The translations under genes were made by a program, and so were the position numbers. 64,000 nucleotides of DNA, from positions 2,495 to 66,494 of the forward strand of contig JABHZW010000034.1 of assembly GCA_018656005.1 (NCBI GenBank). The letters are read 5' to 3'. The stretch comes from Candidatus Pseudelusimicrobium marinum. GTDB lineage: Bacteria > Elusimicrobiota > Elusimicrobia > Elusimicrobiales > Elusimicrobiaceae. This document shows, piece by piece, positions 11,501-59,463 of this stretch. Each line of letters begins with the position of its first letter. Within the stretch, counting starts at the first letter, position 1. The notes under the pieces were generated by a model. It saw only the letters and a list, made by a program, of their open reading frames with translations. It was not told the origin of the DNA and ran no database searches.

Positions 11501-11559
11501 GTCATGCTGAACTTGTTTCAGCATCTTTCTATAAGATCCTGAAACAAGTTCAGGATGAC
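11501..11559. repeat. convergent doublet of GTC-AT..AT-C hairpin repeats (family A)
   Basis: Forward unit GTCATGCTGAACTTGTTTCAGCATC (11501-11525) and inverted unit GATCCTGAAACAAGTTCAGGATGAC (11535-11559). The latter is the reverse complement of the unit at 45357-45381. Confidence 0.9.
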
Positions 11560-21998: not shown

Positions 21999-22073
21999 GT
22001 CATTCCGTGCTTGACACGGAATCCAGGATAAAAAAAGAAAAGACCTAGATTGCGGATCAAGTCCGCAATGACA
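21999..22073. repeat. convergent doublet of family A hairpin repeats
   Basis: Forward unit GTCATTCCGTGCTTGACACGGAATCC (from 21999) and inverted unit AGATTGCGGATCAAGTCCGCAATGACAA (22047-22073). They overlap the spurious 5' extension of the gap ORF. Confidence 0.9.
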
Positions 22074-25893: not shown

Positions 25894-26550
25894 ATGAAAA
25901 ATAAAAAAGGAAATAAAAATTTGTCATTACGAAGAATTTTTTCTTATGTCATTCTCAGCTTGACTGGGAATCTAGTAAAAAATAAGAAAAAATTCTGTGG
26001 TAATCTCGGTTTTACATTAATAGAACTTTTGGTGGTAATACTTATACTAGCAGTACTAGCTAGTATTGCATTACCAAAATATATGGTAGCAAGAGATAGG
26101 GCACACCTTGCTGGTTTAATGACTATTGGTAAAAATGTTAATGATGCTTTGGATAGAATAAGTCTTACTGATGACCAGGCAGATAGCTCAGCTTTAGACA
26201 AATTAGATATAAGTTTTAAGGATTACGAAGGAAGTGATTGTGGTAGCACCTGTAGAATAACAGTTTCAGGTAAAGATTATATGCTTATGCCTGTTCTAAA
26301 TCAGTCTGATGTTCATACTCGGAATTATACTATTTTTTATTCTTATGATAATTCAAATTTTAATAGACTTAATGTCCATACGGAAGAGGGAAAAGTAACT
26401 TGGAATACCACAAATACATATATGCTTTTTTGTTATCAGTATAATGCCTCATATATAGATCCAGATCCAGATAAATGTGAAAGATTAGCAGCAAGTTTTG
26501 GTGCAACTTGTATTGGAGCCACTGGTGCAAGGAGATGTTCTTGGAGCTAA
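25894..26550 (+). CDS. type IV pilin-like protein (prepilin N-terminal cleavage/methylation domain) with a repeat-encoded long leader
   Basis: G|FTLIELLVVILILAVLASIALPKYMVARD, a paralogue of the 41367 gene. The 39-aa leader contains family A repeat DNA in frame. The start is uncertain: ATG 25894, TTG 25921 or TTG 25960. Confidence 0.75.
   Translation: MKNKKGNKNLSLRRIFSYVILSLTGNLVKNKKKFCGNLGFTLIELLVVILILAVLASIALPKYMVARDRAHLAGLMTIGKNVNDALDRISLTDDQADSSALDKLDISFKDYEGSDCGSTCRITVSGKDYMLMPVLNQSDVHTRNYTIFYSYDNSNFNRLNVHTEEGKVTWNTTNTYMLFCYQYNASYIDPDPDKCERLAASFGATCIGATGARRCSWS
25923..26005 (+). repeat. nested family A repeats (one unit inside the loop of another) within the pilin leader
   Basis: The outer unit is GTCATTACG-AAGAATTTTTT...AAAAAATTCT-GTGGTAATC. 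The inner unit is GTCATTCTCAGCTTGACTGGGAATC (25948-25972). Confidence 0.8.
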
Positions 26551-29140: not shown

Positions 29141-29232
29141 GTCATCTTGAGCGTAGTCGAAAGATCTTGGTATTATAGTGTGAACTTAAAGACAAAGATT
29201 CTTCGGCTTCACTTCGTTTCGCTCAGAATGAC
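29141..29232. repeat. convergent doublet of family A hairpin repeats
   Basis: Forward unit GTCATCTTGAGCGTAGTCGAAAGATC (29141-29166) and inverted unit GATTCTTCGGCTTCACTTCGTTTCGCTCAGAATGAC (29197-29232). Confidence 0.85.
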
Positions 29233-34499: not shown

Positions 34500-34544
34500 T
34501 AAAAATTTTTCTAAAGAAGATTAATAAAGTTTAAATATTAACTT

Positions 34545-34677
34545 TTGTCATTGCGAGGGCTGAAAGCCCGTGGCAATCTTAATTTTACAAATTTGTCATT
34601 GCGAGGAGCGATAGCGACGTGGCAATCTTAATTTTATAAATTTGTCATTGCGAGGAGCGATAGCGACGTGGCAATCT
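34545..34677 (+). repeat. three tandem family A units upstream of the GIY-YIG gene
   Basis: Units at 34545-34579, 34593-34628 and 34642-34677 fit TTGTCATTGCGAG-hairpin-CGTGGCAATCT. Units 2 and 3 are identical. The 13-nt spacers are TAATTTTACAAAT and TAATTTTATAAAT. Confidence 0.92.
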
Positions 34678-34688
34678 CGGTGTAAGGT

Positions 34689-34973
34689 ATGAATAAAAAG
34701 TTTTATGTTTATTTTATGACGAACAAAAATAACGAAATCCTATACATAGGAATAACAAATAATTTAGAAAGACGAGTACTAGAACATAGAAACAAATTAA
34801 TAAAAGGTTTTACAGAAAAATATAATTGTACGAAAATAGTACATTACGAAGAGTTTAATTATATAGATAAAGCGATTTTAAGAGAAAAACAAATAAAGAG
34901 TTGGAATAGAAAAAGAAAGAACGATTTGATAAATGAGTATAATTCGAAATGGAATGATTTATATTCAAGCTGA
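34689..34973 (+). CDS. GIY-YIG nuclease-family protein (UPF0213-type, 94 aa)
   Basis: FYVYFMTNKNNEILYIGITNNLERRVLEH fits GIY..YIG..R..E. The gene starts 12 nt after repeat unit 3, and its TGA touches the inverted repeat. Confidence 0.85.
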   Translation: MNKKFYVYFMTNKNNEILYIGITNNLERRVLEHRNKLIKGFTEKYNCTKIVHYEEFNYIDKAILREKQIKSWNRKRKNDLINEYNSKWNDLYSS

Positions 34974-35012
34974 GATTGCCACGAAATTTTTACAAATTTC
35001 TCGCAATGACAA
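34973..35012 (-). repeat. inverted family A unit downstream of the GIY-YIG gene
   Basis: The reverse complement reads TTGTCATTGCGAG-AAATTT-GTAA-AAATTT-CGTGGCAATCT. Degenerate GGCAATGA(CAA) fragments follow at about 35020-35046. Confidence 0.88.
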
Positions 35013-35083
35013 GAAGAGAGGCAATGACAATAAAAAAGGCAATGATTTTAAAATTTAAAATTTAAAATAAAGAGGTAGTTTTT

Positions 35084-36178
35084 ATGGCACTTACATTAAC
35101 AAGTTTACTAAAAACAGTAGTAGAAAATGAAGCAAGCGGTTTGCATATAAGAGGAAACTCTTATTCCTATGTTCGTATTAATACGGCGATAAAAGCTATT
35201 GAAGATAGTTTTTTATCTAACGAACAAGTTAAAAAAATGGCAATGGCTTGTATGGGCGATACGGAAAAAGCAGTTTTTGAAGAAAAAAAATCCGTAGACT
35301 TTTCACTAGATGCTCAAGATTTCGGAAGATTCCGATTTAATGTGTTTTTAAATTCTGGTAAATACTGTATGGCTGTAAGATATATCCCGTATAAAATACC
35401 AAGTTTCGAAGAACTTAATTTGCCAGCAGATACTTTAAAAAAGATAGCAGATAATCAGAGAGGGTTAATACTTGTAACCGGTATGACCGGTAGTGGTAAA
35501 TCCTCTACACTTGCTGCTATGATAGATCATATTAACAGGACAAGAAGAGGGCATATTCTAACAATAGAAGATCCCGTAGAATTTATACATGTGGGCGAAA
35601 AAAGTATCATAAGTCAAATAAACTTAGGTAAAGATACTCCATCTTATAAAGATGCTTTAAGATTTGCAATGAGACAAGATCCAGATGTAATAATGATAGG
35701 CGAGTTAAGAGATACAGAAACAATAGAAGCAGCGATATCTGCTGCGGAAACTGGTCATTTAGTTCTTGCCACAGTTCACACAATTAATGTTGTGCAAACA
35801 ATAGGTAGAATTATAGATGCTTTCCCTATGAACCAACAAGCACAAATACGACTTCAGTTGGCAGATTTGTTAAAAGGTGTAATTTCTCAACGATTATTAC
35901 CAACAAGCAATAATGCTATGATGCCAGCACTAGAAATAATGGTCAATAATGCAAATATTAAGAAATTTATCGCCGACAATAAATTGTTAGAAATAGACAA
36001 AGCAATTGAAGGTGGAGATTATTACGGTATGACAACTTTCGATGATTCTTTGGTAAAACTATACAAAGATGGCAAAGCAAAATTGGATATAATTTTGGAT
36101 TATTCCACCAATTCCGATATGGTTAAACTAAAACTAAAAGGTATCAGAGGCGGAGCAGACGACTGGGAGAACCGATGA
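35084..36178 (+). CDS. pilT: type IV pilus retraction ATPase PilT-family protein
   Basis: Walker A GMTGSGKSST, ILTIEDPVEF, IMIGELRD and GHLVLATVHT. Confidence 0.85.
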   Translation: MALTLTSLLKTVVENEASGLHIRGNSYSYVRINTAIKAIEDSFLSNEQVKKMAMACMGDTEKAVFEEKKSVDFSLDAQDFGRFRFNVFLNSGKYCMAVRYIPYKIPSFEELNLPADTLKKIADNQRGLILVTGMTGSGKSSTLAAMIDHINRTRRGHILTIEDPVEFIHVGEKSIISQINLGKDTPSYKDALRFAMRQDPDVIMIGELRDTETIEAAISAAETGHLVLATVHTINVVQTIGRIIDAFPMNQQAQIRLQLADLLKGVISQRLLPTSNNAMMPALEIMVNNANIKKFIADNKLLEIDKAIEGGDYYGMTTFDDSLVKLYKDGKAKLDIILDYSTNSDMVKLKLKGIRGGADDWENR

Positions 36179-41366: not shown

Positions 41367-41846
41367 ATGAATAAAAAAGCATTTACACTTATAGAACTTC
41401 TAGTTGTGGTACTTATTATAGCTATATTAGCATCTATTGCACTACCAAAGTATATGGTTGCTAAAGAAAAAACGCATGCTGTTAGTGCAATGACAAGATT
41501 AAAATCAGTTGCAGAAGCTTTAGATAGATATAAATTAGCTATAGGGTCTTACCCTTCAACAATATCTAACTGGAGTGCTCTTGATATAGAAATGCCAGAA
41601 GGCTGTTCTGATACTGGCTATTGTACTGGCGATATTTGGCAATGGTATATATATGCTAATAGCGGGAGTGTTCTAGCACACAGAGATCCTAGAACAAAAT
41701 ATTACATTATTTATTCTCAAACAAATAAGTATTTCACATGTTATGTATACGGGGCTGGTTCAAATACTGATTTTTACGAAAAAGTCTGTAAAAGCTTATG
41801 TGGGACAGATTTAACATCTGGTACCAACCCTTATTGTGTTATTTAA
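41367..41846 (+). CDS. type IV pilin-like protein (prepilin N-terminal cleavage/methylation domain)
   Basis: MNKKA|FTLIELLVVVLIIAILASIALPKYMVAKEK, with a Cys-containing C-terminal domain. Confidence 0.85.
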   Translation: MNKKAFTLIELLVVVLIIAILASIALPKYMVAKEKTHAVSAMTRLKSVAEALDRYKLAIGSYPSTISNWSALDIEMPEGCSDTGYCTGDIWQWYIYANSGSVLAHRDPRTKYYIIYSQTNKYFTCYVYGAGSNTDFYEKVCKSLCGTDLTSGTNPYCVI

Positions 41847-41900: not shown

Positions 41901-41937
41901 GTCATTCTCGCACACTAGTGCGGGAATCCAGTATAAA
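41901..41937 (+). repeat. single family A hairpin unit
   Basis: GTCATTCTCGCACACTAGTGCGGGAATCCAGTATAAA differs at one position from the copy at 59427-59463. Confidence 0.9.
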
Positions 41938-45356: not shown

Positions 45357-45417
45357 GTCATCCTGAACTTGTTTCAGGATCTTATAGTAAGATTGCGGAC
45401 CAAGCCCGCAATGACAA
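45357..45417. repeat. convergent doublet of family A hairpin repeats
   Basis: Forward unit GTCATCCTGAACTTGTTTCAGGATC (45357-45381) and inverted unit AGATTGCGGACCAAGCCCGCAATGACAA (45390-45417). Confidence 0.9.
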
Positions 45418-59426: not shown

Positions 59427-59463
59427 GTCATTCTCGCACATTAGTGCGGGAATCCAGTATAAA
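59427..59463 (+). repeat. single family A hairpin unit between the giant gene and the PorV-like gene
   Basis: GTCATTCTCGCACATTAGTGCGGGAATCCAGTATAAA matches 41901-41937 at 36 of 37 positions. Confidence 0.9.

Follow-up and report, generated by a model that had tools for sequence, protein, structure and literature searches.

Does a small nuclease gene enclosed by inverted copies of a short hairpin repeat represent a new kind of repeat system? The question is raised by a 64,000-nt stretch of DNA (the window) from contig JABHZW010000034.1 of Candidatus Pseudelusimicrobium marinum (GCA_018656005.1), an Elusimicrobiaceae metagenome-assembled genome. Between ftsZ and pilT, the window carries an open reading frame (ORF) for a 94-aa GIY-YIG nuclease, with three hairpin units in front of it and an inverted unit behind it. 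An earlier note, made from the sequence alone, had suggested a system resembling repetitive extragenic palindromes (REPs) and their REP-associated tyrosine transposases (RAYTs), built on a different nuclease fold. The Ssn nucleases, their SRM repeats and the comparison with IS200 and RAYT/REP elements have, however, been in print since March 2025 (Chenal et al., Nat Commun 16:2388; PMC11893778). The partnership of nuclease and hairpin is already in the literature and is not a new system. Judged from sequence comparison, the Elusimicrobiaceae locus is very probably a further member of this Ssn/SRM system, with repeats that lie outside the published search pattern. The features of the locus are listed below, with positions counted from the first nucleotide of the window.

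34510-35064, no strand: whole cassette, approximate extent, taken as the insertion relative to empty ftsZ-pilT junctions (relatives L088 and L090 empty, L089 filled)
34547-34578, plus strand: forward unit 1, SRM-like or (C)GTC-type REP, GTC-ATTGC-GAG-[GGCTGAAAGCC]-CGTG-GCAAT-C, exact pattern match
34595-34627, plus strand: forward SRM-like unit 2, weak distal stem, exact pattern match
34644-34676, plus strand: forward SRM-like unit 3, same sequence as unit 2, exact pattern match
34689-34973, plus strand: putative ssn gene, 94-aa single-domain GIY-YIG nuclease (SsnA-like), from Pfam PF01541 and the SsnA alignment
34974-35010, minus strand: inverted SRM-like unit adjoining the stop codon, GTC-ATTGC-GAG-[AAATTTGTAAAAATTT]-CGTG-GCAAT-C, exact pattern match
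35020-35046, minus strand: two orphan 5' heads with an 18-nt period, 5' of the inverted unit, TTGTCATTGCC at 35020-35030 and ATCATTGCC at 35038-35046

The pattern GTCATTGCGAG-N(8-30)-GGCAATC matched exactly four times in the window and not once in 100 shuffles. All of the elements reported in the earlier note were present at the locus, namely the three forward units and the inverted unit, which directly adjoins the TGA of the ORF (34971-34973). Units 2 and 3 have the same sequence, and the 13-nt spacers TAATTTTACAAAT and TAATTTTATAAAT are one base apart. The gap between unit 3 and the ATG, previously given as 12 nt, is 12 nt when counted from the end of the unit; after the trailing T of the unit it is 11 nt. 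The degenerate fragments that had been seen beyond the inverted unit are pieces of the 5' head, at 35020-35030 and 35038-35046 on the minus strand. As single-stranded DNA (ssDNA), the gene-flanking units form a basal stem of 5 bp and, beyond a conserved internal loop, a distal stem that varies. Unit 1 folded into the basal stem ATTGC/GCAAT plus a distal stem at -7.6 kcal/mol (z=-2.4), and the inverted unit folded at -7.3 kcal/mol (z=-3.0).

The cassette is inserted co-directionally within the gene string ftsA-ftsZ-pilT-cmk. A scan of the locus found no promoter upstream of ssn, no terminator and no T-tract terminators, and an Rfam scan of the locus returned nothing relevant. The flanking hairpins are thus not classical intrinsic terminators, and ssn, having no promoter or terminator of its own in that scan, is probably expressed by read-through from ftsZ within this string.

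The 94-aa ORF matched the Pfam GIY-YIG family PF01541 (E=1.2e-17) over residues 4-77 and contained no other domain. The gonococcal orthologue of SsnA (L091:1189-1473) served as reference, standing in for N. meningitidis CAX49033.1; this ORF was taken as the orthologue because it encodes 94 aa with Y6, Y17 and E64 and has 16 canonical copies of the Neisseria repeat NTS in 2.6 kb. The reference came from PLSDB, in which NZ_CP119140.1 and NZ_CP119142.1 are 2.17-Mb N. gonorrhoeae chromosomes filed as plasmids. The window protein was 48% identical to it over 86 of 94 residues without gaps, with E=5e-29 in the pairwise comparison and E=4e-19 in a 7.3-Gb tblastn search. Y8, Y19 and E66 of the window protein aligned with Y6, Y17 and E64 of SsnA at identical spacing, and Y8, Y19, G21, R29, H33 and E66 were invariant in an alignment of 30 sequences (29 homologues and the window protein). 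By the lenient homology criterion of PMC11893778 (E<1e-10 over >75% of the length), the protein counts as a homologue of the gonococcal orthologue. More than 1000 homologues with about 55-65% identity to the window protein were found in very distant lineages, while the 64-kb window itself has only one ssn-type gene.

Other family assignments fitted less well. NCBIfam had no specific model for the window protein and gave sub-threshold matches only. A PDB sequence search gave a single marginal match, the UPF0213 structure 1YWL (E=0.0065), and no solved Ssn structure. The earlier label 'UPF0213-type' is imprecise, as the similarity to 1YWL is marginal in comparison with 48% identity to SsnA. What the protein has in common with the UPF0213/YhbQ proteins is a stand-alone GIY-YIG domain of about 95 aa. 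We know of no repeat association for the UPF0213/YhbQ family. A set of 50,697 phage records contained no homologue; in the plasmid collection 32 records matched, 31 of them non-mobilizable. A homing endonuclease was ruled out by the single 94-aa domain, the chromosomal intergenic site and the lack of a phage match. Homing endonucleases of the I-TevI type share the GIY-YIG domain and the presence/absence insertion with this gene; unlike them, the window protein has no DNA-binding or linker domain and does not lie in an intron or phage, and the characterised Ssn members cut ssDNA only. Membership in the REP/RAYT systems was ruled out as well, as the enclosed gene encodes a GIY-YIG rather than a Y1 protein and the tag is GTC rather than GTAG.

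The Ssn family described in PMC11893778 consists of single-domain GIY-YIG nucleases of about 94 aa (CDD cd10448). The Neisseria NTS was defined there as CGTCATTCCCGCGMAVGCGGGAATCYRG, and the hairpins of NTS and SRM take the form CGTCAT..palindrome..ATC. SsnA bound the hairpin as ssDNA only and on one strand only, and cleaved a few nucleotides upstream of it. Binding depended most on the C immediately 3' of the palindrome and cleavage on the GTC triplet on its 5' side; the Y6A, Y17A and E64A variants no longer cleaved. When the stem sequence was changed and the hairpin kept, the Neisseria activity was abolished. In N. meningitidis, SsnA lowered transformation by NTS-bearing DNA about 5-fold, and restriction of incoming transforming ssDNA is the sole in-vivo role reported for an Ssn homologue (PMC11893778). 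The SRM pattern was derived from 29 genomes of four phyla; at least one motif lay near 71% of SsnA homologues from many phyla, and both sides were occupied in 42%. The Discussion of that paper draws the analogy with insertion sequences (ISs), IS200/IS605 and RAYT/REP-BIME and suggests domestication, without mobility being demonstrated. Repeats of the same kind had been described earlier as 'CGTC-tagged REPs', a class that includes the Neisseria dRS3 and the Rickettsia RPE-4 and RPE-6 (Di Nocera et al. 2013, BMC Genomics, PMC3733652). Their stems begin with complementary A/T and they occur mostly as dimers, often heterodimers. Transposases were sought for them and none was found, and the repeats 'apparently lack a dedicated transposase' (PMC3733652).

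The evidence that ties gene and repeats together comes from 80 homologous loci from reference genomes, with lineages including Bacteroidota, Cyanobacteria, Chloroflexota, Patescibacteria/candidate phyla radiation (CPR), Omnitrophota, Spirochaetota, Planctomycetota, Proteobacteria and Firmicutes. Units were recognised by a detector that requires GTCAT, a 5-bp basal stem and ATC; it is loose, with 3.3 chance matches per 64 kb. A forward unit ended no more than 100 nt upstream of the start at 49 of the 80 loci and an inverted unit started no more than 100 nt downstream of the stop at 51. Both flanks were occupied at 35 loci and at least one side at 65, the latter being a lower bound. Unit density per 50-nt bin near the gene was 0.31 upstream and 0.32 downstream, as against 0.006 and 0.005 beyond 1 kb, which is a 50-60-fold enrichment. 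The ratio of forward to inverted units was 49:23 upstream, and that of inverted to forward units was 51:20 downstream. In most loci the forward unit lay 5-40 nt from the start, and 20 of the 52 downstream units (window included) began within -1 to +4 nt of the stop. Upstream and downstream stems belonged to the same class at 21 of 36 loci, while 8.8 were expected (maximum 15 in 5000 permutations). Protein identity was 57.3% with a shared stem class versus 53.8%, a difference reached in none of 2000 permutations.

With such enrichment and polarity around 80 homologues, the arrangement is not a coincidence. In many bacterial lineages the gene and the repeats go together, and one polarity is preferred. 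The statistical association of GIY-YIG genes with flanking inverted units that the earlier note had envisaged therefore holds, and copies without flanking repeats, which it had named as contrary evidence, did not overturn it: most of the 15 detector-negative loci carry variant hairpins such as GTCTT.., GTCAC..GGGGTC and ..GCAAAC.

The 'dominant hairpin repeat' of that note covers two things. Its gene-flanking subtype, 'GCGAG...CGTGGCAATC', is exact only at the ssn locus; the repeat that dominates the window is more loosely defined (TGTCAT-stem-loop-stem-ATCT) and has eight or more different stems and 16 convincing units. Outside the ssn locus, the exact GCGAG/CGTGGCAAT subtype has one related case, the outer unit at 25923. 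The detector found 17 units in the window, where shuffles gave 3.3 on average and 9 at most; two of its matches (27462 and 56668) look spurious. All units begin with AT.. and end with ..AT. GTC stood 5' and C stood 3' of the stem in 16 of 16 window units, and these are the positions reported as critical for cleavage and binding in PMC11893778. The base before GTC was T in 15 of the 16 units; across the 80 loci it was T in 67% and C in 26%. In 310 units from these loci, a pyrimidine preceded GTC in 94% and followed ATC in 93%, although neither base is required by the detector. The general form of the repeat is thus Y-GTC-AT..AT-C-Y.

The window is 91% coding, and its units are intergenic with the exception of a nested pair at 25921-26007. 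Four forward/inverted doublets enclosing no ORF (11501/11559, 21999/22072, 29141/29232 and 45357/45415) and a nested insertion in a gene had been reported before, and both were confirmed; the insertion comprises 87 nt and is in frame within the ORF at 25894-26550. The repeats away from the cassette are as follows.

11501-11559, no strand: intergenic ORF-less doublet, forward GTCATGCTGAAC..GCATC and inverted GTCATCCTGAAC..GGATC, ssDNA fold -25 kcal/mol, z=-10.6
21999-22072, no strand: ORF-less doublet with two different stems, which recurs within the L089 cassette
25923-26005, plus strand: nested pair, whose outer unit (GTCATTACGAA..TGTGGTAATC) is of the gene-flanking subtype and holds the inner unit (25948-25972) in its loop, fold z=-5.1
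29141-29232, no strand: ORF-less doublet, forward 29141-29166, inverted 29197-29232
41901-41928, plus strand: single forward unit GTCATTCTCGCACACTAGTGCGGGAATC, fold z=-5.2
45357-45415, no strand: ORF-less doublet, forward 45357-45381, inverted 45391-45415
59427-59454, plus strand: single forward unit, near-copy of the 41901 unit, found by the detector

Several observations weigh against assigning the locus to the Ssn/SRM system. The published SRM pattern, HGTCWYN(0-2)YYVSBRHN(0-5)WNVSBRGN(0-2)RNCYNB, had no match in the window and matched at only 2 of the 80 loci. It accepts the canonical NTS when parsed by hand, and the stems and loops of the window fall outside it, so the repeats are SRM-like by the generalised definition and not by the published operational one. 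The identity of 48% is under the strict cut-off of >=60% used in PMC11893778, which is a search stringency and not a definition of the family. Units 2 and 3 folded hardly better than shuffles (-4.5 kcal/mol, z about -0.3), and they keep no more than the basal stem plus the internal loop GAG/CGTG, which is conserved. The window has at least eight stem types for one ssn gene, while the Neisseria SsnA is specific for its stem sequence; the enzyme may be limited to the GCGAG/CGTGGCAAT subtype, that is, to its own flanks and the outer unit at 25923. Finally, the flanking polarity of gonococcal ssnA is opposite to that of the window and of most of the 80 loci. At that locus (L091, NZ_CP119140.1 1881087-1883744), the nearest upstream NTS is inverted and the nearest downstream NTS is forward, 3 nt after the stop.

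As the published pattern misses the repeats of a whole widespread clade of Ssn homologues, it is too narrow, and the counts of Ssn-SRM association in the literature are probably too low. The generalised definition Y-GTC-AT..AT-C-Y recovers the repeats that were missed. Furthermore, each additional pair of Ssn and hairpin is a candidate site-specific ssDNA endonuclease for biotechnology.

By homology with the characterised enzyme, a mechanism can be proposed for the locus. When the DNA becomes single-stranded, as in the lagging-strand template or in incoming transforming or conjugative DNA, a unit would fold into its hairpin. The enzyme would bind the hairpin and recognise the A-T pairs at the base of the stem, the C that directly follows the stem and the GTC that directly precedes it, and only the strand reading GTCAT..ATC would be cut. 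Given the polarity of the two flanks, forward before the gene and inverted after it, each strand is predicted to be cut once, just beyond the cassette. The enzyme presumably acts on its own GCGAG/CGTGGCAAT hairpins when these are single-stranded. Most likely, the consequence for the cell would be sequence-specific restriction or processing of ssDNA, as for transformation in Neisseria. Selfish, linked spread of cassette and repeats is possible and unproven, and so is a role of Ssn in driving the spread of the repeats.

The proposal of the earlier note that the nuclease recognises the flanking GTC-AT..AT-C hairpins in a REP/RAYT-like manner is borne out in part, with recognition favoured by the association at 80 loci and by the biochemistry of homologues, but not in the likeness of the chemistry. 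Enzymes of the GIY-YIG fold act by hydrolysis, and covalent strand transfer as carried out by a Y1 transposase is beyond them. The geometry is thus REP/RAYT-like, while the chemistry cannot be.

FtsZ relatives of the window organism were compared together with their genomic context, with the following result at the ftsZ-pilT junction.

L088: FtsZ 83% identical to that of the window, ftsZ-pilT empty, 22-nt spacer
L090: FtsZ 76% identical (75% in global alignment), ftsZ-pilT empty, 17-nt spacer
L089: FtsZ 82% identical, filled, cassette at the same ftsZ-pilT junction
Window: reference, ftsZ-pilT filled, about 555 nt inserted

The cassette indeed interrupts a conserved ftsZ-pilT context, as had been suggested, with two close relatives lacking it and having spacers of 17-22 nt instead. 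Empty and filled sites, a comparison that the earlier note had proposed to make between strains, were found between related species; within the species, the cassette was present and without structural change in seven independent conspecific assemblies. By FtsZ and PilT identity, the empty L088 and the filled L089 are the closest relatives of each other, so that the site must have seen two or more gains or losses. The L089 cassette is made up of a forward GCGAG-type unit, a GIY-YIG ORF of 98 aa, a doublet, two inverted units (the first of the GCGAG type) and an orphan head. Between L089 (4207-4300) and the window (34644-34712), 49 of 50 nt agreed in the stretch that runs from the 3' arm of the upstream unit to the end of codon 8, while the two GIY-YIG proteins were only 54% identical and the flanking FtsZ proteins 82%. 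This pattern suggests that the ftsZ-pilT cassettes have had a mosaic or gene-conversion history. No clear target-site duplication was found; AAAATTT strings occur on both sides and are indistinguishable from low complexity in the AT-rich flanks.

The doublet in the L089 cassette is the 74-nt doublet of the window (21999-22072) with one extra A, in a different genomic place. Its first 29 nt, GTCATTCCGTGCTTGACACGGAATCCAGG (21999-22027), occurred exactly in at least 119 metagenome contigs with a G+C content of 37-60% and unrelated flanks. In the metagenome loci that were inspected for this 29-mer (L092-L171), the unit mostly formed the outer half of a doublet whose inverted partner was a different one. 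That the same hairpin recurs in genomes so unlike each other implies that it is strongly constrained or often transferred. Many of the metagenome matches (L092, L097, L114, L122, L130, L139, L147, L158 and similar ones) had in common a longer composite repeat in which the hairpin is embedded, GCGGCGGGGTATCATCGTTTGTCCTGGGCC-unit-ATTGTTTTCTGGATACCGGCTTTCGCCGGTATGACGAATTCGCCGC..., and units are sometimes part of larger repeated modules, like the mosaics of BIME and NIME. Taken together, the data are consistent with a cassette that is mobile, or at the least active in recombination, with Ssn as its agent unproven. A complete SRM-ssn-SRM cassette with a clean comparison of empty and filled sites in a conserved operon is the type of evidence that is needed on mobility.

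These sites bear on an alternative that extends the Ssn/SRM assignment, in which the cassette would be an autonomous mobile element, and single units and doublets its derivatives, similar to miniature inverted-repeat transposable elements (MITEs) or REPINs and mobilised in trans by Ssn. Copying or excision would start from nicks 5' of the terminal hairpins and be completed by repair or ligation in the host. The two or more events at ftsZ-pilT agree with this, as do the compact, IS-like packing (inverted unit at the stop in 20/52, forward unit 5-40 nt from the start) and the shared stem class of the terminal units, but recombination between repeats could also give such indels, and the proteins of the two filled cassettes are only 54% identical. 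Similarly, the recurrence of the 74-nt doublet (+1 A) in a species with an FtsZ 82% identical, the unit nested in the loop of another and inserted in frame in a gene, and the identical 29-mer in >=119 unrelated metagenome contexts all speak for movement, and the same idea was raised by the authors of PMC11893778. On the other side, transposition has nowhere been demonstrated, and the literature searched held no later paper in which Ssn mediates it. A target-site duplication is not evident, the window has a single copy that is invariant in the seven assemblies, the phage records contained no homologue, and the matching plasmid records were non-mobilizable with one exception. To our knowledge, no strand-transfer activity is known for GIY-YIG nucleases, which also counts against it. 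We therefore hold this alternative to be possible but doubtful. The same tentative standing applies to its specific form, in which the cassette would be a minimal, self-propagating element of a mechanistically new class, whose sole protein is a hydrolytic, hairpin-guided ssDNA nickase, copied or moved together with the ORF-less doublets by host replication and repair. If this were true, such a nickase element would be the long-missing 'transposase' of the CGTC-REP, dRS3 and RPE repeats, and in-frame hairpin insertions and stacked orphan 5' heads would be possible footprints of repeated nicking.

Two further explanations separate the nuclease from the origin of the repeats. The hairpins could have been spread or created by other means, such as a Y1/RAYT or IS110-type transposase or replication slippage, with Ssn acting among them as a 'policing' or restriction nuclease. 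The tight, polar and stem-matched flanking of ssn across lineages is hard to obtain by mere co-residence, and a search for transposases of the CGTC REPs found none (PMC3733652), so we consider this improbable. It does find some agreement in the role of the Neisseria enzyme, which is restriction of NTS-bearing transforming ssDNA and not mobilisation, and in the 19% of genomes with more than 200 SRMs that have no SsnA homologue (PMC11893778). The stem diversity of the window is also beyond the range expected of one sequence-specific enzyme, and the orphan 5'-head stutters look like products of slippage or repair. Far less probable still is that the repeats are regulatory REP-like hairpins (terminators or mRNA stabilisers) next to an unrelated UPF0213/YhbQ-like repair nuclease or a degenerate homing endonuclease. 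The intergenic position of nearly all units in a 91% coding window, the very stable hairpins of the doublets and the weak match to 1YWL would suit it, but the 50-60-fold enrichment and the polarity around 80 homologues largely refute it. Moreover, T-tract terminators were not found at the locus, the protein has no additional DNA-binding domain, its gene does not lie in an intron or phage, and the similarity to SsnA is far above that to UPF0213.

Membership in the Ssn/SRM system, the reading that we prefer, can be compared with what is known of related systems. The window shares with the published Ssn/SRM loci a 94-aa GIY-YIG protein with the aligned Tyr, Tyr and Glu, oriented (Y)GTC-AT..palindrome..AT-C-Y hairpins on both sides of the gene, and dispersed intergenic copies without an ORF. 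It differs in its host, an Elusimicrobiota (a word absent from PMC11893778) with an AT-rich genome (33% GC), in its tag TGTC where the published one is CGTC, and in its gene-flanking units, which have a basal stem of just 5 bp, the conserved internal loop GAG/CGTG and a distal stem that varies. Its polarity is forward upstream and inverted downstream, opposite to the gonococcal locus. With the CGTC-tagged REPs, the window units have in common the short stem-loop with a (C)GTC tag at one end, an A-T start of the stem and a short unpaired tail, the prevalence of dimers, often heterodimers, and occasional in-frame copies in genes; unlike them, 15 of 16 window units have T before GTC, and the survey in PMC3733652 did not include Elusimicrobia.

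The resemblance to REP/REPIN-RAYT and IS200/IS605 lies in a gene with oriented hairpins on either side, which are recognised in single-stranded form, and in the abundance of ORF-less single units and inverted doublets. Also shared are the single-copy gene, the mostly vertical inheritance and the 'domesticated' flavour. The differences are the fold and the chemistry, hydrolytic GIY-YIG versus covalent Y1/HUH, and the tag GTC versus GTAG. Unlike the ends of IS200/IS605, which lie on the same strand, the terminal units of the window lie on opposite strands, and of IS200/IS605 and Ssn only the former has been shown to transpose.

Orphan 5' heads like those beyond the inverted unit were also seen elsewhere. 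They consist of GTCAT, the left arm and a pyrimidine-rich spacer, and are stacked with a period of 17-32 nt immediately 5' of full units. Such a stutter accompanied 21 of 336 units in other loci, including L004, L015, L018, L019 and L029, whereas the symmetrical control on the 3' side gave 1. The stutter is directional and lies on the side where Ssn enzymes cut, and no mention of it was found in the available text of PMC11893778.

The gene directly downstream of the cassette encodes a PilT-like T2SSE ATPase (PF00437, E=9e-46; 35084-36178), and type IV pilin-like genes lie at 25894-26550 and 41367-41846. Type IV pilus machinery serves DNA uptake in naturally competent bacteria, the process that SsnA modulates in Neisseria; the adjacency of ssn to a pilus gene may be a coincidence. 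The nested pair of repeats lies within the leader-peptide region of the first of these prepilin-like genes, in which the N-terminal methylation motif is at residues 39-60. The 29-codon insert lengthens the prepilin leader from about 5-9 to 38 residues, while the paralogue at 41367-41846 has a normal leader (MNKKA|FTLIELL). The pair is similar to the RPEs inserted in frame in Rickettsia, members of the same class of CGTC REPs.

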